A stretch of DNA of 64,000 nucleotides from an uncultured Spirochaetota bacterium (GTDB taxonomy: Bacteria; Spirochaetota; Spirochaetia; SZUA-6; Fen-1364). The notes under the pieces are model-generated. The model made no database searches. It had not been told where the DNA came from and saw only the letters and a list, made by a program, of their open reading frames with translations. The position numbers were made by a program, and so were the translations under genes. Of the stretch, positions 20,296-53,503 are shown one piece after another; position 1 is the first letter of the stretch; the number at the start of each line of letters is the position of its first letter. The stretch spans positions 544,001 through 608,000 of the forward strand of contig CAWAHW010000002.1 of the NCBI GenBank assembly GCA_963781885.1, in the 5' to 3' direction.

Positions 20296-23200
20296 TCAAA
20301 AGAGGGGGAGCTGTCGGCTTTTGCGTCGCCGATTCGGCAGCGTGCTGCGGAGAGAGAGGGGGATGTCGCCGATGAAACGCGACGGAAGGCATTCACGGAG
20401 CTGGCCGTACACGCGGCGCCTCGCGCAATGGCTGATGAAGAGCCGGTCGCCCGCGCGCGTCATGGCCACGTAGAAGAGCCGCCGTTCCTCTGCCAGGTCG
20501 TCCGGCAGAGGGGTGATGCCTTCCTCGGCTCCCGCGATGAAAACGACCGGGAACTCCAGGCCTTTCGCCGCGTGGAACGTGAGGAGCGTCACCTTCTGCG
20601 CGGGGCGCGGCCCCTCGCTCTCCCGTGCGCACAGAGACACGTGTGAGAGAAAACCGGGCAGGTCGGTCCCGAAGCGCGCGGCGCTGGACCTGATGGTCTC
20701 TTCGCCGAGGGTGATATCCGGCACCGTCCGATCCAGCGGTATGGCCGTCTGCATCACCAGGTCCAGCGCCGCGCAGATTCCGGCGTCCGCCGCGGTGCGG
20801 GCCATCAGCGCGCCATTCGCCAGGATCGCGTCCAGGGCTCCCGTCGTGCCGGTGCGCTTCTCGTGCCGGCGGAGGATGTGGAGCGCCACCGCGTCCGCCG
20901 GGTCGGCGGCGAGATTGAGCGCGGCGATCAGGGCATCGAAGGGTTCATCGTCGGCGAGCGGCGCATTGGAGGCGACTGCAAGAGGAAGCCCGGCCTCCTG
21001 CAGGGACGGCAGCAAGGCATCCCGGACGGCGCGGGTGCGAAAAAGCACGGCGATGTCGGAAAAGGCATACCCGGTCGCTTCCCGCCCGCGTGCGGCGTCG
21101 ACGGAGACGGAGTCCACTCCTCCGACGAGGCCCCGAATTTCACCCGCGATGAAGCGTCCTTCCTCTTCCGGGTCGCTCACCGCGGCGACGCGTATCGCCT
21201 GCCCCGGGCCACGGACCGCCGACAGCAAAGGGCCGTCCTGCCCGCGATCCCTCGCGATGACGGCCGCGGATGCCTCCACGATGCAAGCGCTCGACCGGTA
21301 ATTGCGTCCAAGGGAATAAGACTCCGACCGTGAGAGAAGGGCAAAACGCTGGAAGAGCTCCCGGTCCGATCCGCGGAATCCGTAGATGGCCTGGTCGGGA
21401 TCGCCGATGCAGAACACGGCCCCCACGTGCGCCGCGAGAAGCTCCAGCAGCGCGAACTGCGGCGTATTGATGTCCTGCAGCTCGTCCACGGCAACGGCGC
21501 AGAAGCGCCGGCCGATCGATGCACAGAGGGACGAATCTGCCCGGAGAATACCGACGAGCTTTCCCACGAGGCCCGCGATGTCGACGCAGCCTGCCCCGGC
21601 GATTTCCGTCTCGTAGGCGGCAATCGCCGCCGCCAGGTCGGGGTCCGGCAGGGCTTTACCCTCCCACGCGCTTTCCATGGCGGTGGAAAGCCCGCGGATG
21701 CGGGTGGCTGGCTCGGCCGGAAAAAGCATTTCCAGATGCGCACGCCGCCGCGCGGGCGTGACCACGCTGGGTGAGGAGAGGATCGAGCTCGCGGAGGAGC
21801 GACCAGCTGAATGAATGGAACGTTGCCACGGTCGCGTCGGCCGCACGGGCCGGCGCCAGCCGGGCGAGTCTTTCGGAAAGCTCTCCGGCCGCTCGGGTCG
21901 TGAAGGTGAGGGCAAGGCCCCTGCCGCTGCCGCCATCGCCGCGCCCGCTCGCCTGCGCGAGCCAGTGGGTGAGGAGCCGGGTCTTTCCCGACCCGGGCCC
22001 CGCGCTCACGACGATGCGCGGCGCCGCACTTTCCACGATGGCGCGCTGCGCCGCGTCGAGTGCATCGACAGGCACCGAAGTTGCAGGTCCGCGTCCCGCG
22101 GCGCGGTCTGCGTCGCCGCGCGGCGACACGGCAGCCTGCACCCGGCGCGCGGACCGCCGGACTGCGGGGAAAAGCTCGTCCTGGCCGCGCAGCCGTTCCC
22201 GCTCATCGTCGCCGAACACCCGTATGACGCCGAACTCGCCGTCGTAGCCGGGCCGCGCATCGATCCTGCCTTCCCGCATGCGGGTCACCGCTTCTGCCAG
22301 CAGGGCGCCGTGTCGGCGTCGGATGTCCTCGACCGGTGCGTCCAGCAGGAGGCCGTACTCGCTGCCGAACGCGCCCACGATGCGCGCGTAGGCGGAGACG
22401 ACCGCGCGCGAGCCGACCCCCGCGCCGGCAAGCTCCGCGAGAAGCTCGGCAAGCGGGATGAGGGAATGAAAACCTTCGCCGGGTCGCGGCGGCGCGGGTG
22501 CCGCACGGTCGGCAAGGGCCATCACGCGGCTCAGCACGCCGATCGTGAGGGGCGTGCCGCACACCGGGCACATCCCCCCCGCCTCCCGCGAGCGCGCGGG
22601 CTCCCAGCAGATGCCGCACGTGCGGTGGCCGTCGAGGTGGTACTTGCCTTCCTCGGGATAGAACTCGCAGGTGCCCAGGAATCCGTGCCCGGTGCGAAGC
22701 GCATCCGTTACCCCGCGCCAGCTGGGCTCGGTGTCCAGGAGATTGGCCTCCCGGCCGAGATTCGGCGGCGAGTGCGCGTCGGAGTTGGAGACCAGCCGGT
22801 AACGGTCCAGCGCGCTCCATCTCCAGTTCATGGCGGGGTCGGAGGAGAGGCCTGTCTCCAGCGCGAAGATGTACGGCGTGAGCTCCTCGAAACAGTCCTC
22901 GATGCGGTCGAAGCCGGACTTCGACCCGAAGAGGGAGAACCAGGGCGTCCAGATGTGCGCCGGTATCAGGAAGGAGTCCGGGTTTGTTTCCAGGAGCAGC
23001 GACAGCAGGTCTTTTGGATCGAGCCCGAGTATCGGCCTGCCGTCGGAGGCGATGTTGCCAATGCGCGCGAGCTTCGCGGCAAGATGCCGTGCATCCTCCA
23101 GCGTCGGCACGCCGATGAGGCTGTGCACCTTGTGCACGACGCCGTGCTTCCTGTAGATGGAGCTGATCTCGGTCGTGGGGAGAAAGCGCACGTCCCGGTC

Positions 23201-23440
23201 CGCCGGTGCGGCGCCTTCCAGCGGTGAATCCCGCGGGGGATCCTTCAGGACGTAGAGACCGTCACGCTCCACGAGGGATTCGCTGAGCTCCGCGAACCAC
23301 TGGGGATGCGTGAAGTCCCCCGTGCCGACGATGTCGATTCCCTTGACCCGGGCCCAACGATGGAACCCATTCAGGTCCGCCTCCCTGCTCGTGGCCCGGG
23401 AATACCGGGAATGCACGTGCAGGTCGGCGACGAGCCTCAT
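20296..23440 (-). CDS. Endonuclease Q-like PHP domain fused to UvrD/REP helicase, frameshift near 21770
   Basis: DLHVHSRYS, GTGDFTHP, PAHIWTPW, SNSDAHS, GKYHLDGHRTC..C/CPVC; then AGPGSGKT, VDELQD, GDPDQAIYGFRG, NYRS, HAAKGLEF, EERRLFYVAMTRA. Confidence 0.88.
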
Positions 23441-29985: not shown

Positions 29986-31172
29986 TCAGCTTCCTGCGTC
30001 GCCCGCAGGCCTCCGGTTGCGGACGAGGCGGACGGTGACGACCGTCAGGACAACAAGGAAGCAGTTGAGGCCGAGGTAGAACCAGAAGCCGCCGTGAATG
30101 CCGACAGTCTGCGCAAGGAGCGACATCAGGAAGGGGAAGACAATGGATCCTGCCGCGCCACCGGTTGCGACGGAGCCGACGGCGACGCCGGTCTTGTAGT
30201 AGCGCCCCACGACCGTCATCAACAGGGGATAGAAACCCGAGAAGCCCAGGCCCGTGAAGAAAAACGCGATGATGACCGCCACCGCGGAATGGACCAGCAG
30301 GACGATGAGGAGCATGGCCGCGGAGAACGAAGTCAGGCCGAGCATCAGCATTTCCTGCCGCCTGCCCTTGTACCAGAAAGAGACCGCGAGCCTGCCGACG
30401 AGCAGGCCCACCCAGACCACGGCGACGGCGTATGCCCCCTGCGAGGCGGCGGATCCCAGCACCTGCACGAAGAACACGGAAGACCAGGAAAAGACGCCGA
30501 TCTCCGTGCCGACGTACACGAAGAGCGCGAGGATGAGGATGATGAGGAGGGGCTCACGCACGAGACGCAGTCCCGGCTCCTTTCGCTTTCCGCTCACCGG
30601 CCGGGGTGCGGGAAATGCGCGATCCCGAAAAGGACCGCGATGATGATGAGGAGGATGCCCGCGGCGAGAAAAACGGCGAGCATCGATACACCCGCGCCCG
30701 AGACGTAGCCGACGGCCGCGGGCCCGATGATCGCCCCGACGCAGAACGCCGCGTGGAGCAGGTTCATGAGCCTGCTTTGGCCGTTTCGCTCGATATGGAT
30801 GATCTCCAGATTCGCCGTCACCTCCATGGAGCCCTGGCAGAGACCGATCGCGAATGCGAAGGCGAGGTTGGGCCAGGGGGAGGGGACGCGGCCGAACAGC
30901 GAGACACCGATGGCCCCGGCGACAAGGCCGACCACGATCACGACCTTCGCCGGGACGCGCTGGATGATGACGCCGCTCAGGAATGCCGAAAGCAGGTACC
31001 CCACGGCGCTTCCCGCCAGCACGATGCCGGTGACCGTGTATGACCAGTGATAGTCGCGGATGAGCTGGGGGAGTGAGGCGCCGGCGATGGTGAAGATCAT
31101 GCCGAAGCCCATGAAGCCCGCGAGGAAGAGGACGTAGAGGCGGCGGCTTGCCGCATCGAGTTTTCCGATCAT
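29986..31172 (-). CDS. MFS transporter (FucP/TsgA-like), frameshift near 30600
   Basis: N-half in ORF 30594-31214 (MNLLHAAFCVGAIIGP), C-half in ORF 29986-31743 (YVGTEIGVFSW). Confidence 0.8.
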
Positions 31173-31282
31173 GTGTGTTTCTTCCTTCATAAGCGAACGG
31201 AGCGGCAAGGTCAAGCGCCATGGGTCGCCGATGAAAGACCACGGTCGTGACCGAATGAGCCGCGGTTGAGTTATGTCCGGAT

Positions 31283-31338: not shown

Positions 31339-32505
31339 ATGTTGCGCGCGAGGCGTGTTCTGCTCTGCGGCATCACCATGACGCTCATTGTCCTGGGGTT
31401 GCCGTCGTATGCCCAGAGCGATGCCACGTCCGCGGCCTCGTCGCAGGCCTCCACCAGGTCGGCGCCGGCGCCGACCGCCCCTTCTTCGAAGACTCCCGCG
31501 TGGACAAGGGTGCACAGGGTCGATGATTTCGTGACGGCGGGGGACATTCGCTCGGGCACCGTCCTCTCCGACGCGGACGCGCCGGTTGTCGTCTTCTCCC
31601 ATGGAAGCCACACCGCCGCGGGCGTGAGCTGCGAGCAGTGCCACCACACCGGCGTGCAGGGCTTCCAGGCGCCCGCCTGTGCCTCGTGCCACAAGGGAGC
31701 CGCGGCGGTGGACGTCATGCACGCGGCATGCATCACCTGCCACCAGCGCACAGGCTCAGGCCCGGTGAGCTGCAACGACTGCCATACGGCGCGCCAGACG
31801 AGCCTTGCCGGCGTCTACCGCTTCGAGCTTTCCGACGTCGTCCGGGGGCCGCTGTTCATCGCCGCGTGGGCGCTCTTCGTTCTGGGTTTCGCGTGGCGCA
31901 TCCTTCAGTTCAGCCGTCTCACGCGCGCAACCCGTTCGCGCCTCACCGCGCCGTTGCCGTCGGTTTCCGCGGAGTGGAGCGGCGCCGCCAACGATCGCGG
32001 CTTCTTCGCGCGGCTGCGGCGCTGGGTGCGCGGTACGATATTCGGCACGCATCCCGTCATGGGTGTGGTGAGCCTCCTCTTCCACCTCCTCCTGGTGCTT
32101 CTGCCCCTTCTTCTTCCGGCGCACAACATCCTCTTCGCGCTGACCTTCCGCGTGAGCCTGCCCACGCTCCCCGAGCCCTTCATGGACAAGGCCACACTCG
32201 GGCTTCTGGCGATCGGTGTCTTCTTCCTGGCGCGCCGCATCTTCTCCCCCCGGATACGGGCGCTCAGCACCCTACGCGACTACCTCGTGCTCCTGCTCGT
32301 TGCCGCCCCGTTCGTCACCGCATACATGGCCTACCACCATTGGCTGGACTACCGCACGGTGCTCGTGACGCACATGATCGTCGGTGAAATACTCATTGCG
32401 CTGATCCCCTTCACGAAGCTCGGGCACATGCCCTTCCTGATCTTCGCCCGGTTTTTCGTGTCCGGCGAATACTCCTGGAGACCGGGGAAGCGGAGGTGGA
32501 GATGA
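31339..32505 (+). CDS. Tetraheme cytochrome c3 fused to NarI/TmcC/HmcE-type membrane cytochrome b
   Basis: Signal peptide; FSHGSH plus CEQCHH, CASCH, CITCH, CNDCH; then about 5 TM helices with His residues (FHLL, AHN, THMIVGE, FTKLGHM). Confidence 0.85.
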   Translation: MLRARRVLLCGITMTLIVLGLPSYAQSDATSAASSQASTRSAPAPTAPSSKTPAWTRVHRVDDFVTAGDIRSGTVLSDADAPVVVFSHGSHTAAGVSCEQCHHTGVQGFQAPACASCHKGAAAVDVMHAACITCHQRTGSGPVSCNDCHTARQTSLAGVYRFELSDVVRGPLFIAAWALFVLGFAWRILQFSRLTRATRSRLTAPLPSVSAEWSGAANDRGFFARLRRWVRGTIFGTHPVMGVVSLLFHLLLVLLPLLLPAHNILFALTFRVSLPTLPEPFMDKATLGLLAIGVFFLARRIFSPRIRALSTLRDYLVLLLVAAPFVTAYMAYHHWLDYRTVLVTHMIVGEILIALIPFTKLGHMPFLIFARFFVSGEYSWRPGKRRWR

Positions 32506-32894
32506 GCGGACATTCCGTGGACGCGAAGACACTCCAGAGGATCTCCCGGGTCGTGGAGGGGAAGAAGGACATGATCCGCCTCTCGCTCCAGGCCTGCGTC
32601 CACTGCTCGCTGTGCGCGGAGAGCTGCTTCCTGTACCGCCAGAGCGGCGGGGACCCGACGTACACGCCGGCGTACAAGGCCATCAACACGATCGGAAAGA
32701 TCGCAAAAAGCAGGGGCAGGCTTTCGGACGATGCCTACGAGCGGATCCGCGAGCTTGCCTGGGACAAATGCGTTCTCTGCATGCGCTGCTACTGCCCCAT
32801 CGGCATCAGCGTTCCCTCCCTCATCGCCGCGGCGCGCAGCGCCTGTCGAGAGAAAGGGGTGCACCGCTGGTACACGACAAGGAGGAACGCATGA
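32502..32894 (+). CDS. Small 4Fe-4S dicluster protein (HdrC / TmcB N-terminal-like)
   Basis: CVHCSLCAESC and CVLCMRCYCPIGI; ATGA overlap with the upstream stop. Confidence 0.85.
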   Translation: MSGHSVDAKTLQRISRVVEGKKDMIRLSLQACVHCSLCAESCFLYRQSGGDPTYTPAYKAINTIGKIAKSRGRLSDDAYERIRELAWDKCVLCMRCYCPIGISVPSLIAAARSACREKGVHRWYTTRRNA

Positions 32895-33295
32895 AGGGAA
32901 GAAGGGCGTTTTTCGTGCTTCTCGCATTCGCACTCGGAACGTGCGCGCCGGCGATCTTTGCGGACCCCCCCGCCGTTCTCATGCTCGCAAAGGCGAAGGT
33001 CTTCGGCTCGCTCAGCAGGCCCGCGGTGCGCTTTACGCACGGCGCCCACGGCACCATCCAGGGGGTGAGCTGCCTCACGTGCCATCACGTGTACAAGGAC
33101 GGGAAAAACGTCCTCGACCTCGCCCAGCTCACGGTCGGCAATCCCGCGATACGCTGCGAGACGTGCCACGCGAGCCCGCGCGACCTTGAATCGTCCTTTC
33201 ACAAGTTGTGCATCACCTGCCACGACACCGCGAAGGCGCAGGGCAAGGTGACCGGTCCGCGCGACTGCGGCGACTGTCACGCGTGGGACAGGTGA
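32891..33295 (+). CDS. Periplasmic tetraheme class III cytochrome c (c3/TmcA-like)
   Basis: GGAGG SD, signal peptide, RPAVRFTHGAH, CLTCHH, CETCH, FHKLCITCH, GPRDCGDCH; ATGA overlap. Confidence 0.9.
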   Translation: MKGRRAFFVLLAFALGTCAPAIFADPPAVLMLAKAKVFGSLSRPAVRFTHGAHGTIQGVSCLTCHHVYKDGKNVLDLAQLTVGNPAIRCETCHASPRDLESSFHKLCITCHDTAKAQGKVTGPRDCGDCHAWDR

Positions 33296-33307
33296 GCAGG
33301 GGGGAAT

Positions 33308-33992
33308 ATGGTCAAAGCGAAACCAAAACCGCTCGGTGAGATATTCGACAGGGTGAAGGGCTACCGGCGCGTCCTGATCGTCGGCTGCGGCGGATGCACC
33401 TCGGTCTGCCTTGCCGGGGGACAGCGCGAGTCGCTCGCCCTCGCCGACGAGCTTTCTGCCTGTGCGCGCGCGGCGCGCGTGCCCCAGCAGTACGCGACGT
33501 TCGTCACCGAAAGGCAGTGCAACGCCGAGTTCGTCGACGAGATCGGGGAGCGGGCCGCCAACTGCGACTGCCTGATCTCCCTGGCGTGCGGGGCCGGTGC
33601 GGGGCTCCTGGCGGACGCGTTCCCTTCGCTTCCGATGTTCCCCGGCCTGGACACGATGTTCGTCGGCGTGGACCGCGACGTGGGCTTCTACGAGGAGCGC
33701 TGCAGGACCTGCGGCACCTGCGTCCTGGGCGACACGGGAGGGATATGCCCGGTCACGCGCTGCTCCAAGGGCGTCCTGAACGGGCCTTGCGGCGGCACAC
33801 GGGAGGACGGCTCCTGCGAGCTTGCCGACGGCATCCGCTGCGCCTGGCACGATATATATGACAGGCTGAAAGCGCAGGGGCGTCTTTCCCAGATGCTCAT
33901 CGTGCGGCCTCCCATGGAGTGGGTCGACCGGGGTGTGCGGACCCTCATCCAGAAGGGCTACGAAGGCGCGGTACGCCGCCAGAACGGGCTGA
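33308..33992 (+). CDS. metV: MetV, Cys-rich partner subunit of methylene-THF reductase (apparent 1-nt insertion near 33963)
   Basis: GCGGCTSVCLAGG, RQC, ACGAG, CRTCGTCVL..TGGICPVTRCSKGVLNGPCGG, CAW; probable true stop TGA 33990-33992. Confidence 0.88.
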
Positions 33993-34004
33993 GGGGGATG
34001 CCCA

Positions 34005-34931
34005 ATGAAGTCGGGCAGCAATCTGGAAAAGGTGCTTTCGGCAGGGCATTTCGCCGTGACGGCGGAGCTCGGCCCGCCGCCGGGCGCCGACGTGGATTTC
34101 GTCGCCAAGAAGGCGGAGCTGCTGCGCGGCGCCGTCGACGCGGTGAATGTCACCGACAACCAGACCGCCGTGGTCCGCATGTCCAGCCTCGCGGTGTCGG
34201 CGCTGCTGGTCGGGATGGGCATCGAGCCGGTCATGCAGATGGTGTGCCGCGACAGAAACCGCATCGCCATGCAGAGCGATGTCTTCGGCGCCTCGGCGCT
34301 GGGCATCCGCAACCTCACCTGTCTCATGGGGGACCACCAGGCCTTCGGCAACCAGACCGGCGCAAAGAAGGTGTACGACGTCGACTCCGTCCAGTTGATC
34401 TCCATCGTGAAGCGCATGCGCGACGAGCGGAAGATCCTGGGCAGCGATGAAGAGATCCTCGGCAGCGTGCCGATGTTCATCGGCTGTGCGGCCAATCCCT
34501 TTGCCAAGCCGTACGAGTTCCGCGCCCTGCGTCTTGCGAAAAAGGTGGAGGCGGGCGCGGACTACGTGCAGACGCAGTGCGTCTACGACGTGAAGATGTT
34601 CGCCGAATGGATGAAGGCGGTCCGCGACCTCGGCGTCCACACGAAGTGCCGCATCCTGGCGGGGGTGACGCCCCTGAAGTCGGCCGGCATGGCGCGCTAC
34701 ATGGCCGAGCAGGTCCCCGGCATCATCATCCCGCCCGAGATCATCGCGCGCTTGGCCGCGGCCCCCAAGGGCAAGGGCGCCGAGGTGGGGCTCGCCATTT
34801 GCGCCGAGATCATCGAGCAGCTGCGCGCCATCGAGGGCGTGGCCGGCATCCATATCATGGCAATCGAGTGGGAGCAGAAGGTCCGCGAGATCGTCCAGAC
34901 GGCCACGCTGCTTCCGCGGCCCGTCGTGTGA
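34005..34931 (+). CDS. metF: Methylenetetrahydrofolate reductase, MetVF type
   Basis: TAELGPP, NVTDNQTA, QMVCRDRNRIAMQ, GDH, KKVEAGADYVQTQ, GIHIMAIEW. Confidence 0.95.
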   Translation: MKSGSNLEKVLSAGHFAVTAELGPPPGADVDFVAKKAELLRGAVDAVNVTDNQTAVVRMSSLAVSALLVGMGIEPVMQMVCRDRNRIAMQSDVFGASALGIRNLTCLMGDHQAFGNQTGAKKVYDVDSVQLISIVKRMRDERKILGSDEEILGSVPMFIGCAANPFAKPYEFRALRLAKKVEAGADYVQTQCVYDVKMFAEWMKAVRDLGVHTKCRILAGVTPLKSAGMARYMAEQVPGIIIPPEIIARLAAAPKGKGAEVGLAICAEIIEQLRAIEGVAGIHIMAIEWEQKVREIVQTATLLPRPVV

Positions 34932-35042
34932 GCCATCACCGCGAAGGACGGTTCCCCGACGGCGTCGCGCCCGGGGCCCCGCCCCTCATCGGCGCAGTGC
35001 CCGCCCTTCCGCGCGCGCGGCTTTCATGGTAGCGTGGACTCC

Positions 35043-36008
35043 ATGGACGGGGCAGACGCGCGCGGCAACGACAGGCTGGAGCCGGACGACCTGCAGGAAA
35101 TCGTCGTCGCGTGCGACAGGGACGGGATCATCCTGTCCTGGAACCGGGCGGGCGAGGAGATCACCGGTTTCCTGCACGACGACGTCATCGGCTATCACCT
35201 TGATGCCGTCATAGCCCCAGAGTCGCGCCAGTTCCTCGACCAGATCCTCACGGTGGAGAGGAGCGGATCGCTGCTTCCCGGTCTCCCCGTGCGCCTGCAG
35301 ACGAGCTTCGGCTGGGTGGTGCCGGCGGAGGTGACATCGGTGCCCCGGCGCGGCGCCGACGGCTGGCTGCTCATCTTCCGCGATACGACGCTGAAGGTGC
35401 AGCTCCAGGAGCATCTCGACCGCCTGGACGTGCTCTACCGCGGTCTGGTGGAGGATTCACCCGACATCATCTACGTGCTCGATGAGCGCGCGCGCGTGCT
35501 TTTCATCAACGACACGGTGGAAAAGCTCCTCGGCTATTCAAAAAGGGAGATCATCGGCAATGATCTCATCGAGCTCGTCCATCCCGACGATCGCCAGCAG
35601 GCGTACTGGCCCCTGCGGGAAAGACGCCACGCGGACCGCGCGACGCGCAACCTCCGCCTGCGCTTCCTCACCCGCGCGGGACGGCAGCGGCGCTATGACC
35701 TTGATTTCATCTACATCTCCCTGACGGCGGTCGGCCTGGGGTCGAACAGGCTGGGGGCGCAGCCGCGCGGCGAGCCGGGCGGCGCGCTGGGAACCCAGGG
35801 CGTGGCGCGCGACGTCACGGATCTCGTCATGCTGAACGAGTTTTCGCGACAGGCGGAGCTCATCCTGCCTGTCTGTTCGATCTGCCACAGGATCCGCGTG
35901 ACGTCGGGCAGCACCGTGGAATGGCTGCCGCTTTCCGACTACCTGACGCGCAGGACGGGTGTACTTTTTTCCCACACCTACTGCCCCGACCACGTACCCG
36001 CGCAATAG
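35043..36008 (+). CDS. Tandem PAS-domain protein with C-terminal CxxC...HxxCPxH motif, no kinase or cyclase output
   Basis: WNRAGEEITG and INDTVEKLLGY...VHPDD PAS motifs; LPVCSICHRIR...FSHTYCPDH tail. Confidence 0.8.
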   Translation: MDGADARGNDRLEPDDLQEIVVACDRDGIILSWNRAGEEITGFLHDDVIGYHLDAVIAPESRQFLDQILTVERSGSLLPGLPVRLQTSFGWVVPAEVTSVPRRGADGWLLIFRDTTLKVQLQEHLDRLDVLYRGLVEDSPDIIYVLDERARVLFINDTVEKLLGYSKREIIGNDLIELVHPDDRQQAYWPLRERRHADRATRNLRLRFLTRAGRQRRYDLDFIYISLTAVGLGSNRLGAQPRGEPGGALGTQGVARDVTDLVMLNEFSRQAELILPVCSICHRIRVTSGSTVEWLPLSDYLTRRTGVLFSHTYCPDHVPAQ

Positions 36009-49240: not shown

Positions 49241-50038
49241 TCAGGCCTTGAGAGGTTTCAGGGCGCTGCGCACCGTCGAGGCGATGATGGCCGCTGCCAC
49301 CACCACGCCGCAGGCGACCGCCGCCACGAACACTACGTGGCTTGCAGGGGTCGCGTCAGCCGATCGCTTCAGGACGATTCCCGCCAGAGCCCAAAGCACC
49401 ACCAGACTGTAGCCCACGTCCCGCCGGGTCGCCAGGACTGCAACCGTGATGAGGGCCGCCACGATAATCACCGCAACCGTCCATACCTCCGGCCGCAGGC
49501 CGAAACCGTTCCAGCCCGCCTTCACCAGGAAAGCCGTCACGTCGGCAATCGTCGCAACGGTTATCCATCCGAGGTAGATGCTGAAGGGCACTCGGAAGAA
49601 CCACCTCTCCGCTCCGCCGGCGCGCGTGCGGCCCGTCCGCAGCCTCACGTAGACGGCGAGCAGCGACGCAAGGATCACCAGCATCGCCAGGACCGACACC
49701 CCGACCAACTGATAGTGCCACAGCAGAAGCCATGCGACATTGGCAGCCGATGACAGAGCAAACAGCCAGCCGATCTGCCGGGTCCCCTCGGGGACGGCCT
49801 GGCCGGCAGAAAACAGGCCGCGCGCCTGCGCAATCGTGAAAAGCAGGAGCAGGAGGTAGATCACGCCCCAGATCGAGAAAGTAAGCCCCGCGGGCACAAA
49901 GAGATTGGGGATGCTATCAGAGAGCGCGCCGGTGAGCCGACCGTTGATTCCGACCGTCGATGCGAGCGTGTTCACGACGAGGACAGCCAGGAAAGAGATG
50001 ATGTTGACAACCTGAATGATCTTCATGTTCGTTTTCAT
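49241..50038 (-). CDS. TspO/MBR-like tryptophan-rich membrane protein
   Basis: PAGLTFSIWGVIY, NVAWLLLW, PFSIYLGWITVA. Confidence 0.8.
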   Translation of the reverse strand: MKTNMKIIQVVNIISFLAVLVVNTLASTVGINGRLTGALSDSIPNLFVPAGLTFSIWGVIYLLLLLFTIAQARGLFSAGQAVPEGTRQIGWLFALSSAANVAWLLLWHYQLVGVSVLAMLVILASLLAVYVRLRTGRTRAGGAERWFFRVPFSIYLGWITVATIADVTAFLVKAGWNGFGLRPEVWTVAVIIVAALITVAVLATRRDVGYSLVVLWALAGIVLKRSADATPASHVVFVAAVACGVVVAAAIIASTVRSALKPLKA

Positions 50039-50155
50039 GTCTCGAGAATACCATTGCCGTCCCGTTTCGGGCACTCCAAATCCGGCCCGGGTGAGAAAGG
50101 CGGCGTCAGCGCCGCCGATGCTTCCCGGGCCAAACGAGCCGTGATCCGCAGACGC

Positions 50156-51385
50156 CTAGAAGGCGAGGTCAAAAGCGGCGCTGATGGTGTAAGGGGAGCC
50201 GCTCGTCTTTGTTCCGGAAAAAGGATAGGCGAAGTACAGATTGAGGTCCGCCAGATCGAAAACATCTATGTAAATTCCTATTCCGGTGGACCCGAGAAAG
50301 CCGCTGGCCGTGTTGCTGGATTCCTGAAGATAGCCATTGTAGTAGGCGGTATCGACAAAGGCAAATAGTGCCGGCTCCAGGTCCCGCCATACGATCGCCG
50401 GGCCCACGACGCGCAGCTCCAGGTTGTTGATCAATTTCAGTCCGGTGGCGTAGTTTCCGTCATCCAGTCCATGAATCGTCGTGCTGTTTCCTGCGCGCAC
50501 GTATCTTCCGCCAAAGCTTTCAAAGACGAAGACGGGAACCGAGCTCCCGCCGGCATAGTCAACGCCGACATAGTCGGCAAGATACCCGCTTAGAAGGTTC
50601 ATGTTGGGGTCAGACGCGGTGGATTTGGCAAACAGCGTTTGATACAACTTGAGCGTCGCATTGAAGCGATAGTAGTCGGAGCCTCCGATCGTGTTGAAGA
50701 AAAAGCTCGGGCCCCATTCCGCGGACGCTTCGCCGTATATGCCCTGCTCCGTCTTGTGAACGGGGTCGACGGCAACCGTGTTCAGCGAGAGGCCGGCAAG
50801 CAGCGCGTTGGAAAGGATCTGGGTCTTGTCGGGGAAGGTGGAATCGTTGAGAAGCGAAGACTGCTGGCCCCATTCTGTCGATACGGAGTTGTAGTCGTAG
50901 TGGACCCTGTAGAAAAGAAAGCCCTCCAGGAGGTTTCTTTTTTGGCCCGGGTTCCACAAAATGCCTTGACGGATGCCAATGTCATTGACGAACTCGGCCT
51001 GATCGTAGGTCGTCGGTGAGTTTCCCCCGCTCGTCGGGCCCAGGATGTTGACAAAACCGGTCTGCGTGTAGCTCGCCGATGTGTTTCCTCCCGTAAAGGG
51101 GCCCGTGTAGTGGCTTCCATCGGGATTGACGTAGAAATTGTTTGACTGCCAACCGGCTCCCGGGTCATCTTCAATGATTGTGTCCAGCCCCGGTATCAGC
51201 CGCATGCCCGCATAGAGGATGTCGATGCTCGCGCCTGAGGGCACGAACCCATCCAGCCAATAGGCATAGAGTCCATACCCCGTGAATGTCCACGTTCCGG
51301 TGGGGGTCGTGGATTGCGCGAACGCGGTGGCGCCGCCAAGGCACAGAAGGATCGCCAACACGCAGGCGGATGTCGTGCGCTTCAT
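50156..51385 (-). CDS. Putative outer-membrane beta-barrel protein (Omp85 surface-antigen-like)
   Basis: Signal peptide, Y/F/G/N-rich amphipathic strands, GG..VR motif, NNLELR, C-terminal Phe; GGAGG SD; visibly lower GC. Confidence 0.65.
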   Translation of the reverse strand: MKRTTSACVLAILLCLGGATAFAQSTTPTGTWTFTGYGLYAYWLDGFVPSGASIDILYAGMRLIPGLDTIIEDDPGAGWQSNNFYVNPDGSHYTGPFTGGNTSASYTQTGFVNILGPTSGGNSPTTYDQAEFVNDIGIRQGILWNPGQKRNLLEGFLFYRVHYDYNSVSTEWGQQSSLLNDSTFPDKTQILSNALLAGLSLNTVAVDPVHKTEQGIYGEASAEWGPSFFFNTIGGSDYYRFNATLKLYQTLFAKSTASDPNMNLLSGYLADYVGVDYAGGSSVPVFVFESFGGRYVRAGNSTTIHGLDDGNYATGLKLINNLELRVVGPAIVWRDLEPALFAFVDTAYYNGYLQESSNTASGFLGSTGIGIYIDVFDLADLNLYFAYPFSGTKTSGSPYTISAAFDLAF

Positions 51386-51499
51386 TGATACCTCCATTGA
51401 TGGAACTGTCTGCGGGGACTATATCACTCATTGGTCTGGCGCGCGATGCCCTGATTGCGGGAAAAAGACAGGTTGTTCTCAAGCGGCGGGATTAAGGAA

Positions 51500-51574
51500 T
51501 CGGGCTGGGCGGATTTGAACCGCCGACCCCTTGCACCCCAAGCAAGTACGCTAAACCAACTGCGCTACAGCCCG
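51500..51574 (-). tRNA. tRNA-Pro (TGG), CCA not encoded
   Basis: CGGGCTGTAGCGCAGTTGGTTTAGCGTACTTGCTTGGGGTGCAAGGGGTCGGCGGTTCAAATCCGCCCAGCCCGA cloverleaf. Confidence 0.97.
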
Positions 51575-51586
51575 ATTTCGGCCTGC

Positions 51587-51615
51587 AATCTACCACCCGC
51601 ACCGGGGCATGTCAA
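51587..51615 (-). promoter_or_regulatory. Sigma70-type promoter of tRNA-Pro
   Basis: TTGACA-17 bp-TAGATT on the minus strand. Confidence 0.75.
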
Positions 51616-51880
51616 GTTGCGGCGCGCGCGGCGGCCCACGCGGATCGCGTGGCAGGGCGGCAAAGGCCTCCATGCGGGCCTTGGCTTTGACCAATGTCTG
51701 ATGTAGTCATTTATTGACTACCTATCTTATGCTTGCCTCCCTCACCGGAATCCTCTGGCCTGGCCTCAACCGAGACCGGCAAAGCTGCGTTGCGCATCCC
51801 GCGCGGTGACCGTGCTCCGCACCGGCCCGGCATCGCGCGCGTGGCTTGAAGCGACGCTCTGCTTCCGATACTTTTTCCGC

Positions 51881-53503
51881 ATGACGGCACAGCGCAAGCT
51901 CTGGCTCATTCTGCTGACACTCATCTCCGCGGTGCTTTTGCCGCTCGCCCTGCCGAACGACCTTTTCGGCGGCGCCATCAGGACACTCGGGTTTTCCGCG
52001 GGCGAAAGCTTTTCCTGGGGGAATGCCGTCCTCGGAATCGTCGCCATCGCGCCGTTGTTCTACGCGGTGAGCCTCGCGCCGACCTTCGGGTTTGCGTCCC
52101 TCCTGGGCGTCATCTTCGGCGGCGTTTCCACGGCGCTTTCCAACTTCTGGCTCATGTTTTTCCAGGGCTTCTCCGTCTGGACGTACGGCGGCGTGATCGT
52201 CGGTTACATCGGGTATAACGCGCTCCTTTTCCCCTTCCTGCGCGGCTTCGCGCGCATCAGCAGTCGTTTCCGACCCTTCCTGCTCGCCGCGGCATGGTGC
52301 GGCTACGAGTACTTCAAGTCGATCGGATTCCTGGGATACCCGTGGGGCCTGATCGCCTATCCCATGGGAGGCTTCCTGCCCCTCGTGCAGTTCGTCGACG
52401 TCACCGGCGTATGGGGGCTGTCCTTCCTCATGGCGCTTGTGAACGCGCTTGTCGCCGAGTACGCCCATGCCGGGTGGCGGCCGTTCTTCCGCCGTCAGGC
52501 GGCCTTCCTCGTCGTGCTCGTGGCATGCGCCCTCGTCTATGGCGTCATCCGCCTGGCCACGCCCATCCCGCAGAAGGGGGAGGCCACGCTGCTGCTCGTC
52601 CAGCAGAACATGGACCCGTGGGACGAAGGCCGCAATATCGACCAGAGCCTGCGCGTCAATCTCGATCTCACCTCGGAGGGCATCAGGAATACGCCGACGC
52701 TGCCGGATCTCGCCGTGTGGAGTGAAAGCTCCGTCTACAGCCCCTTCGTGGAAAAGGGACAGTTTGCGCCGCAGAAGAACCAGCTCGTGGACGAAGTGAA
52801 GGCGGGCGGGGTCCCGATCCTTTTCGGCGGCGTGGTGATACTGGACCGGCAGAAGGAACAGGCGATGAATGCCTCCATCCTCGTCGCGAAGGACGGGAGC
52901 ATCGTCGATACCTATGGCAAGACGCATCCCGTGCCGTTCGCGGAAAGCATCCCCTTCTTCGACGTCGACTGGGTGGCGCGTTTCTTCCGCAGGGTGGTGG
53001 GGATCGAGAACCCATGGGTGAGCGGCAATCGATTCACCATCTACTCGACGCCGCTTGCGCGCGGCGGGACCATGAGCTTCGGGACACCGATCTGTTTCGA
53101 AGATGCCTTTGCGCAGGTCTGCCGCAGCTTTGTCGACCGCGGCGCCGACGTGCTCGTGAACATCACGAACAACTCCTGGTCGAAGACGTGGTCGGCGGAG
53201 ATCCAGCACTTCCAGGCTGCACGATTCCGCGCCATCGAAAACAGGCGGGTGCTCGTCCGCTCGACGAATGGCGGCCTTTCCGCCGTGGTGGGGCCGTGGG
53301 GGGAGATCAGATCGCGCATGCCCCTCTTCGAGCGAACCTACCGGGTGGTGGACGTGCCGATCTATCGGGCAGCCACTCTTACCGTGTATGCCCGGTTCGG
53401 GGACTGGTTCGCGTGGGCAATTCTCGCGCTCCTTCTCATCGTGCTCGTGGTCGACGTCCTGCCGAAAAAAAAGAGGCTGCCTCTAGAAAGCAGCCTCCTT
53501 TGA
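51881..53503 (+). CDS. lnt: Apolipoprotein N-acyltransferase
   Basis: GYPW, QQN, WSES, YGKTHPVPFAE, PICFED, NITNNSW, RAIENRR, RSTNGG. Confidence 0.95.
   Translation: MTAQRKLWLILLTLISAVLLPLALPNDLFGGAIRTLGFSAGESFSWGNAVLGIVAIAPLFYAVSLAPTFGFASLLGVIFGGVSTALSNFWLMFFQGFSVWTYGGVIVGYIGYNALLFPFLRGFARISSRFRPFLLAAAWCGYEYFKSIGFLGYPWGLIAYPMGGFLPLVQFVDVTGVWGLSFLMALVNALVAEYAHAGWRPFFRRQAAFLVVLVACALVYGVIRLATPIPQKGEATLLLVQQNMDPWDEGRNIDQSLRVNLDLTSEGIRNTPTLPDLAVWSESSVYSPFVEKGQFAPQKNQLVDEVKAGGVPILFGGVVILDRQKEQAMNASILVAKDGSIVDTYGKTHPVPFAESIPFFDVDWVARFFRRVVGIENPWVSGNRFTIYSTPLARGGTMSFGTPICFEDAFAQVCRSFVDRGADVLVNITNNSWSKTWSAEIQHFQAARFRAIENRRVLVRSTNGGLSAVVGPWGEIRSRMPLFERTYRVVDVPIYRAATLTVYARFGDWFAWAILALLLIVLVVDVLPKKKRLPLESSLL
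53465..53497 (-). terminator. Intrinsic terminator of the RRM gene embedded in the lnt 3' end
   Basis: GAGGCTGC/GCAGCCTC stem followed by T8 on the minus strand. Confidence 0.8.

Follow-up and report, generated by a model that had tools for sequence, protein, structure and literature searches.

The window analysed here is a 64-kb stretch of DNA with a G+C content of 65% from the genome of an uncultured spirochaete (G000:C2:544001-608000; the genome, G000, comprises 4.64 Mb in 7 contigs and is 92.55% complete and 2.12% contaminated). Between positions 31339 and 34931 it carries five genes, all on the + strand, in which metV and metF, encoding a MetVF-type methylene-tetrahydrofolate (methylene-THF) reductase (MTHFR), follow genes for two tetrahaem cytochrome c3 modules, a membrane cytochrome b, and a small Fe-S protein (Table 1). 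Their arrangement points to a MetVF core mounted on an electron-transfer scaffold of the Tmc/Hmc kind. A preliminary description of this DNA had proposed five genes on one strand, the first three joined by ATGA overlaps, and these overlaps lie exactly at 32502-32505 and 32891-32894.

Table 1. Genes of the cluster and the gene that follows it, in window coordinates
Feature	Position	Strand	Description
c3-cytochrome b fusion	31339..32505	+	signal peptide, Ser/Ala/Thr/Pro linker, tetrahaem c3, predicted five-helix dihaem-type cytochrome b (TmcC/HmcE/NarI-like)
small cytoplasmic 2x[4Fe-4S] protein, 130 aa	32502..32894	+	counterpart of the N-terminal ferredoxin domain in TmcB/HmcF/DsrK; lacks CCG domains
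separate periplasmic tetrahaem cytochrome c3, TmcA-like	32891..33295	+	134 aa with leader
metV (Fe-S/Zn subunit of MetVF)	33308..33992	+	PF12225; frame correct only with one base skipped near 33965-33969
metF (flavin TIM-barrel methylene-THF reductase, MetVF type)	34005..34931	+	PF02219
PAS-PAS protein, Cys/His-rich C-terminus	35034..36008	+	PAS 4.2e-29; cluster membership uncertain

Gene products of the cluster

The first gene, for which the public gene call (P0001, 388 aa) starts at 31339 and an alternative ATG lies upstream at 31273, encodes a c3 domain (Pfam Cytochrom_CIII, 6.6e-09) with four CxxCH motifs, fused to five hydrophobic helices recognized by hydropathy. Its Pfam match to Nitrate_red_gam is weak and sub-threshold, and among NCBIfam models, judged here against their equivalog cut-offs, the cytochrome b part is best matched by TmcC (2.6e-43; 148.1 bits, cut-off 240) and also matches HmcE (3.1e-32, below the cut-off). 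NarI is the only real sequence match in the PDB (E 2.5e-4). A Foldseek search with a model of the anchor gave no hit at E <= 0.001, with NarI chains ranked first (probability 0.99, E 0.035) and M. smegmatis EtfD 9th. Two His pairs, 249/262 in helix 2 and 345/363 in helix 5 (numbered from 31339), are invariant in 19 homologues. By its five transmembrane (TM) helices and these two His pairs, the membrane part is a predicted NarI-type dihaem cytochrome b. Its Arg-rich first loop and positively charged C-terminus mark the cytoplasmic side, and a leader is present on both c3 modules, whereas the Fe-S protein has none.

The 130-aa Fe-S protein matches Fer4_8 (9.9e-10) and gives no match to the CCG family PF02754. 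It aligns to HmcF (1.5e-24) over profile positions 37-155 of 457 only and to TmcB (3.8e-22) over positions 23-137 of 430 only, and the RnfC model leaves a trace (E 0.0015) at the first Cys motif only. Eight Cys residues (32, 35, 38, 42, 90, 93, 96, and 98), which form two cluster motifs, are invariant in 39 sequences. The separate c3 (Cytochrom_CIII 1.7e-09; TmcA 6.8e-19 at 68 bits, cut-off 114) carries an N-terminal leader, four CxxCH motifs, and four further His. MetV (PF12225, 9.6e-33) is the sole MetV in G000 and has 13 Cys that are invariant in 39 sequences. MetF matches PF02219 (3.1e-37) over positions 2-285 of 287 and is 67-87% identical to its relatives; its best NCBIfam model is the MTHFR half of PRK08645, and the NAD(P)H-type model TIGR00676 reaches 82.9 bits against a cut-off of 293.7. 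PDB sequence searches gave no match for MetV and no real one for the Fe-S protein. The assignments of the preliminary description, namely two tetrahaem c3 modules with signal peptides, a NarI-type cytochrome b, a two-cluster Fe-S protein, MetV, and MetF, all hold.

A complex prediction for MetV with the Fe-S protein scored 0.09 (mark 0.32), which speaks neither for nor against binding. A promoter and terminator scan returned no promoter-like site; three terminator-like sites were found, all on the - strand and within chance, and none on the + strand inside the cluster.

The metV reading frame

The preliminary description had separated the last genes by gaps of about 12 nt. This is right for the c3 stop codon (33293-33295) and the metV ATG (33308), which are 12 nt apart; the gap between metV and metF exists only if a base near 33965-33969 is skipped. 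As assembled, the metV frame meets no stop until 34450 and runs 445 nt into metF, giving an open reading frame (ORF) of 380 aa. With one base skipped, the protein ends in ...GYEGRYAARTG, with the stop codon at 33990-33992, 12 nt before metF. In 12 relatives, MetV is 223-250 aa long with the C-terminal motif G[YF]E[GA]RY, and metV and metF overlap by 4 nt in 10 of the 12. The 380-aa ORF was considered as a real extension or a MetV-MetF fusion and rejected, as its tail is out-of-frame metF and the relatives keep to the shorter length. Contigs of three DNA runs contained short matching pieces, none of which spans 33951-33993.

Split genes occur elsewhere in the same assembly. In the window, a UvrD-like helicase (20296-23440, - strand) and an MFS transporter (29986-31214, - strand) are each divided into adjacent ORFs in different frames, and elsewhere in G000 a PFL-like gene lies in three pieces (C3:183605-185574), with ResB (C2:375-1338), purH (C1), and a URO-D-family gene split as well. 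Since so many genes are broken in this indel-like way, an assembly indel is the more likely origin of the extra metV base than a real mutation. If the frameshift were real, the cluster would be decaying in G000 and its enzyme would be inactive or impaired there, a reading suggested by the distant stop codon and by the extra base in GGCGCGG, which a DNA alignment finds absent from four of four relatives. We consider decay improbable, as the frame is altered in no more than the last ~8 codons, downstream of the conserved GYEG, the other genes of the cluster are intact, and the helicase, MFS, purH, ResB, URO-D, and PFL-like genes are split as by indel errors.

Conservation of the gene set

We followed the cluster in two sets of loci, which overlap partly in that several contigs are common to both. 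The first consists of 14 loci from related genomes. For the second, one genome per species was scanned with an alignment of 19 cytochrome b homologues, and the best 80 of 126 confirmed relatives were kept, with flanks of 7 kb on either side. A locus is called metV-linked when metV lies on the same strand within 3.5 kb of the cytochrome b gene, and phyla are given as labelled in the records.

Of 41 related genomes (G000 included), 19 have the cytochrome b: besides G000 itself, it is present in 18 of the 24 further members of its family and in none of 16 genomes from other families in the order. The order cytochrome b, Fe-S protein, (c3), MetV, MetF is kept in 12 of the 14 related loci; the remaining two break off at contig ends. 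The c3 gene is present in five of these 12 loci and there is no c3 at all in seven, indicating that the invariant core is cytochrome b, the small Fe-S protein, MetV, and MetF. Among the best 80 loci, 68 are metV-linked, 3 are contig-cut, and 9 lack metV; 63 of the metV-linked loci have metF too and 57 have a c3 match. They comprise 18 loci from Spirochaetota, 38 from Thermodesulfobacteriota/'Deltaproteobacteria', 3 from Planctomycetota, 2 from Myxococcota, and 1 from Nitrospirota (Thermodesulfovibrionia), together with 4 'Proteobacteria' metagenome-assembled genomes (MAGs) and 2 loci without a phylum label. Synteny, which had been set beforehand as a test of the proposed system, is thus kept in both sets (12/14 and 68/80).

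The order of the genes varies between groups. Syntrophales-type loci read MetF-cytb-FeS-c3-MetV-(second MetF), the Desulfotignum order is c3-MetV-cytb-FeS-MetF (MAGs L093-L099 and L102), and in some 'delta', Myxococcota, and Planctomycetota loci cytb-FeS-MetV-MetF precedes genes for a multi-domain c3, a Fer4_11 protein, and (in L083) an NrfD-family protein, which resemble HmcA, HmcB, and HmcC. That metV and metF are interspersed with the membrane genes would be difficult to account for if the products did not work together. HmcA-, HmcB-, and HmcC-like genes occur in 12, 11, and 9 of the 80 loci, all non-spirochaete, and the loci with a multi-domain c3 and a Fer4_11 protein resemble an Hmc-like version of the MetVF wiring. 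In L054:10024-13895, L083:11676-13812, and L071:8905-12684, the MetVF set is followed by a large c3 with 3-4 class III domains, the Fer4_11 protein, and a large ORF, which is Pfam NrfD in L083 and has no family in L054 or L071, that of L071 matching that of L054 by tblastn.

Some loci carry additional MTHFR genes. In Syntrophales-type loci (L073:9699-10658), a second, divergent MetF, ~35% identical to that of the window, follows metV, and the two MetF paralogues may share one MetV or one membrane module; farther downstream in L073, after a PAS kinase, lie an HdrC-like and an HdrB-like (CCG) gene. In the more distant spirochaetes L042-L044, an AcsE-like pterin-binding methyltransferase lies upstream of the set. 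A Pfam scan of L042:4461-7380 shows this 438-aa methyltransferase, then a 527-aa fusion of MetF with the MetV C-terminal domain (MTHFR + DUF5981), and then cytochrome b; L043 and L044 give equivalent tblastn matches. The L042 fusion would represent another, divergent MTHFR in addition to the one linked to the cytochrome.

The PAS-PAS gene starts ~100 nt after metF, and its product ends in the motif CSICHRIR...SHTYCPDH. It stands directly 3' of metF in 6 of the 80 loci (57-72% identity), all of them spirochaete loci with a c3 gene. In L073 and L099, the genes after the cluster encode PAS histidine kinases. The protein may be a sensor or regulator, possibly a redox sensor for the system. Elsewhere in the window, G+C falls to 0.58 at 50001-52000 from ~0.65, and this part may be foreign or non-coding DNA.

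A short Fe-S protein tracks metV

The length of the Fe-S protein follows the presence of metV. The short form is found in 67 of the 68 metV-linked loci, the exception being L108, which has a long form with metVF upstream. The nine loci without metV, among them Desulfocarbo indianensis and Desulfacinum infernum, all have the long TmcB form, with 432-499 aa in eight and a contig-cut 295 aa in L101. The 39 aligned short proteins measure 124-160 aa, some longest-ORF lengths being inflated by open upstream frames. Together with the match of the window's protein to the N-terminal part of TmcB/HmcF only, this pairing strongly supports the earlier suggestion that MetVF takes the place of the CCG catalytic module, and the 130-aa protein is the signature subunit of the system.

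In a midpoint-rooted maximum-likelihood tree built from the 39 short proteins plus the N-terminal portions of the 9 long forms, short and long split with support 100/100. All 17 spirochaete-type rows fall into a single clade (100/99), which lies inside the diversity of other phyla and groups with Desulfobacterales/Desulfococcaceae rows (98/94), a placement that hints at lateral acquisition. In an even sample of the phylum, the short protein is present at E <= 1e-20 in 9 of 301 genomes (G000 included), the other eight belonging to two further families. Its profile finds 415, 131, and 16 of 1.84 billion representative proteins at E <= 1e-3, 1e-10, and 1e-30, and a search of a 90%-identity collection gives 2016 candidates, of which at least 1206 protein clusters reach E <= 1e-15. 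The best 120 of these 1206 matches carry generic names only ('Fe-S oxidoreductase') or none.

One natural fusion, P0128, joins a cytochrome b 36% identical to that of the window to a C-terminal Fe-S domain, supporting contact between the two proteins on the cytoplasmic side. For the step from the Fe-S protein to MetV, a fusion search for longer proteins gave a single match, a CCG/response-regulator protein, and no FeS-MetV fusion, and PF12225 is found in 0 of 20 longer Fe-S representatives. This result would suit an arrangement in which the cytochrome, Fe-S, and c3 genes adjoin metVF by co-regulation or chance, MetVF being a soluble, ferredoxin-type (type II) enzyme and the membrane module serving another acceptor. 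Purified MetVF is indeed described as soluble and as using reduced ferredoxin in vitro (PMC8760232). However, the CCG-less protein is paired with metV almost without exception while the metV-less loci keep the long form, the pairing outlasts shuffling of gene order that puts membrane genes between metV and metF in at least five phyla, and the cluster shows no further conserved gene that could supply an acceptor. Thus, we find mere neighbourhood an unlikely explanation.

Comparison with known systems

The cluster is most similar to Tmc (TmcABCD, in Desulfovibrio and relatives) and Hmc (HmcABCDEF), with which it shares a c3 nearest TmcA and a cytochrome b nearest TmcC/HmcE, both scoring below the equivalog cut-offs, the N-terminal ferredoxin domain of TmcB/HmcF, the Tmc gene order, and a presumed role in electron transfer across the membrane. 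It differs in that TmcB and HmcF carry CCG domains whereas its Fe-S protein has none, in that MetV and MetF stand at the cytoplasmic end, and in that one c3 is fused to cytochrome b. The fourth Tmc subunit, TmcD, is a Trp-rich protein; the five-gene set holds no further ORF that could be a candidate for it, and no search aimed at TmcD was made. As the CCG feature that defines the Tmc subunit is missing from the predicted Fe-S protein, the cluster is not a Tmc complex by its gene content. The wider NarI/DsrM/HdrE family (DsrMK, HmeCD, EtfD) has the same five helices with His pairs in helices 2 and 5, but its partners carry a catalytic CCG domain or are the NarGHI molybdoenzyme, whereas this cluster ends in a flavin folate reductase.

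The MTHFR classes of acetogens include II (MetVF), III (RnfC2-MetVF), and IV (HdrCBA-MvhD-MetVF), and the paper that sets out the four types assigns a membrane-integral subunit to none of them (PMC8760232). The cluster shares with types II-IV the core of MetF (PF02219) and MetV (PF12225) with its conserved Cys, and with types III and IV an extra electron-input module beside metVF, but here the partner is predicted to be membrane-integral and to face the periplasm through cytochrome b and c3. The type IV markers HdrA, HdrB (CCG), and MvhD are absent from the five genes and from the neighbours scanned at 15520-50074, the Fe-S protein being HdrC-like in size only, and the cluster has no domain of the RnfC2-like NADH-binding subunit that marks type III. 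On these predicted parts it is not a type II, III, or IV MTHFR but a MetVF core on a Tmc/Hmc scaffold.

Membrane-associated MTHFR activities have been reported in two organisms. Sporomusa ovata has a chain from H2 to methylene-THF in which no transmembrane subunit was found (PMC9430772), and the MTHFR of Thermacetogenium phaeum is described as quinone-dependent and membrane-associated without TM helices (PMC6895022). These studies report MTHFR in washed membranes, methyl-THF:anthraquinone-2,6-disulfonate (AQDS) activity, and cytochrome b/quinone-linked models in both directions (PMC9430772, PMC6895022), which provide a functional precedent. As portrayed there, the attachment is loose, via Hdr/MvhD-type proteins, whereas the cluster encodes a predicted dedicated anchor; the organisms and the partner proteins differ as well.

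We found no description of a cytochrome b/c3-MetVF cluster in the literature searched, with key comparative papers on sulfate reducers, figures, and supplements outside its view, and within that scope the novelty supposed in the preliminary description stands. A figure legend for Desulfobacterium autotrophicum lists 'MetF-ABC' and two 'TmcBCA' clusters that the accompanying text passages leave unexplained (PMC2702500), so that the link may have been drawn earlier without remark.

Proposed mechanism

The five genes probably encode one membrane-bound electron-transfer complex, a Tmc/Hmc-derived wire from the periplasm or the membrane to MetVF. The domain identities, the topology signals, the interleaved synteny, and the pairing of the truncated Fe-S protein with metV are direct observations, and from them we infer physical association with MetVF, cofactor loading, interaction with quinone, and the direction of electron flow. 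The periplasmic tetrahaem c3 modules would form the outer end, one soluble or lipid-anchored and one fused to the anchor, and electrons would pass through two b haems stacked across the five-helix cytochrome b. On the cytoplasmic face of the anchor, the 2x[4Fe-4S] protein would dock and take electrons from the b haems, handing them to the MetV clusters and on to the MetF flavin, with MetVF standing where Tmc and Hmc carry their CCG (DsrC-reducing) domains.

Such a complex would link the methylene-THF/methyl-THF couple to periplasmic cytochrome c3, to the quinone pool, or to both, with electrons moving across the membrane and proton uptake or release on the cytoplasmic side. If low-potential donors in the periplasm reduce methylene-THF, protons would be consumed in the cytoplasm and a proton-motive force would build up; oxidation of methyl-THF toward low-potential periplasmic acceptors would be driven by that force. 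Menaquinone has a potential of about -74 mV, and methyl-THF oxidation toward quinone would be downhill. For the methylene-/methyl-THF couple, the passages on energetics in two MTHFR studies give an E0' of about -200 mV (PMC9430772, PMC6895022).

Metabolic context and evaluation

The preliminary description had called for a check of the genome, and part of the expected equipment is there. G000 has fhs and folD, PFL-like enzymes, the system II haem-attachment pair ResB/CcsA, six UbiA-family prenyltransferases, a 14-subunit-type complex I including NuoEFG, and cytochrome bd. It also has four matches to the [FeFe] hydrogenase family, three of them strong, and several corrinoid proteins, one beside a URO-D-family methyltransferase. 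Complex I lies at C2:~695500-709500, cytochrome bd with CydCD-like transporters at C6:332000-334500, and carotenoid genes (phytoene synthase, desaturases, lycopene cyclase), which adjoin a B12-binding helix-turn-helix regulator, at C2:464000-473000. Glutamate mutase (MutS/MutL/MutE) and methylaspartate ammonia-lyase are found at C1:204000-216000 (L146), and G000 appears to encode glutamate fermentation by the methylaspartate route.

Several points weigh against the proposed complex or its role in this organism. The complex, and the expression and activity of all its members, are predictions from sequence; the scores of the TmcC, TmcA, and HmcF models are all under the NCBI equivalog cut-offs, the AlphaFold2 model of the cytochrome b anchor has a moderate mean confidence (pLDDT 66.4), and metV is frameshifted in the window as assembled. 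Nine spirochaete-type loci (8 Spirochaetota and L035) are without any c3; there the partner of cytochrome b must be something else, presumably quinone, and reduction of methylene-THF by menaquinol would be uphill. The other expected part of the equipment was not found in G000: acsB (PF03598) has 0 matches, the only [NiFe] hydrogenase match is weak and covers profile positions 16-69, leaving no group-1 enzyme, and the single molybdopterin match is NuoG, leaving no molybdopterin formate dehydrogenase. After a composition filter (G+C above 0.72 at third and below 0.6 at second codon positions, GC3 and GC2), the operon's two c3 modules are the only ORFs with at least two CxxCH (2 of 22,595), a result that together with ResB/CcsA speaks for the complex, but no other multihaem cytochrome c passes the filter as a possible partner. 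Given the missing acsB, no definite source or sink of methyl-THF was found in G000.

These gaps speak against the role that the preliminary description had proposed for this spirochaete, a possible Wood-Ljungdahl redox-loop site at which periplasmic H2 or formate would feed electrons through c3, cytochrome b, and the Fe-S protein to MetVF. The architecture permits such a loop, fhs and folD are present, and methylene-THF is reported to be reduced with H2 by membranes of S. ovata (PMC9430772). In L073 and L054, the set comes directly after carbon monoxide dehydrogenase (CODH), AcsB, AcsC/D, and an AcsE-like pterin-binding methyltransferase, and the 7-kb flanks contain AcsB in 15 and AcsCD in 18 of the 80 loci, all non-spirochaete. 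However, no spirochaete locus has AcsB, CooS, or AcsCD within 7 kb, and among 15 genus relatives acsB was found in one only (G012), which is without a cytochrome b match. Thus, Wood-Ljungdahl energy conservation is not supported for G000, where we rate the loop as improbable, but it is plausible for those carriers that have the set beside acs genes.

A purely anabolic enzyme, in which quinol or c3 electrons would reach MetVF for methionine and methylations with no bioenergetic role, would fit with the quinone-linked chain of complex I and cytochrome bd and with the statement that MetVF-type enzymes depend on a partner donor and have no site for NAD(P)H (PMC8760232). We give this little credence: in G000, methionine synthesis should be served by a second, bifunctional homocysteine methyltransferase/MTHFR that adjoins metE, reduction driven by quinol would run uphill thermodynamically, and the set lies within catabolic acs/CODH operons in other phyla.

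The membrane-bound MetVF complex is our preferred reading. Because this spirochaete has no acetyl-CoA synthase to take methyl-THF, we lean slightly toward the oxidation of methyl groups there: methyl groups from methyltransferases would be carried as methyl-THF, oxidised, and taken on to formate by FolD and Fhs, the electrons leaving by way of c3 or quinone and cytochrome bd. In carriers with acs genes, either direction makes sense. The architectural idea, a MetVF core on a Tmc/Hmc scaffold, is strongly supported by comparative genomics. A broader proposal, which we place a little short of an even chance, is that the set represents a fifth, membrane-integral type of MTHFR, in which a Tmc/Hmc haem wire swapped its CCG module for MetVF and the methyl step became a chemiosmotic site, and that it was passed laterally to acsB-less spirochaetes for the oxidation of methyl groups to formate.

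Implications

The question of membrane coupling of methylene-THF reduction goes back to 1977, according to a paper on the acetogen enzymes (PMC8760232). An operon that combines MetVF with a cytochrome b anchor of its own and haems in the periplasm offers a concrete, sequence-defined, and widespread target for this question, and the short TmcB-like Fe-S protein beside metV is a usable marker for annotation. The cluster also shows module swapping on the Tmc/Hmc scaffold. It could explain how the methyl-THF barrier is overcome in complete oxidisers and in syntrophic oxidisers of acetate, as well as the energy gain of some autotrophs at the methylene-THF step. If true, the proposed complex would be the missing hard-wired answer to the thermodynamic bottleneck of the reversible Wood-Ljungdahl pathway in anaerobes labelled as Thermodesulfobacteriota, Planctomycetota, and Myxococcota.

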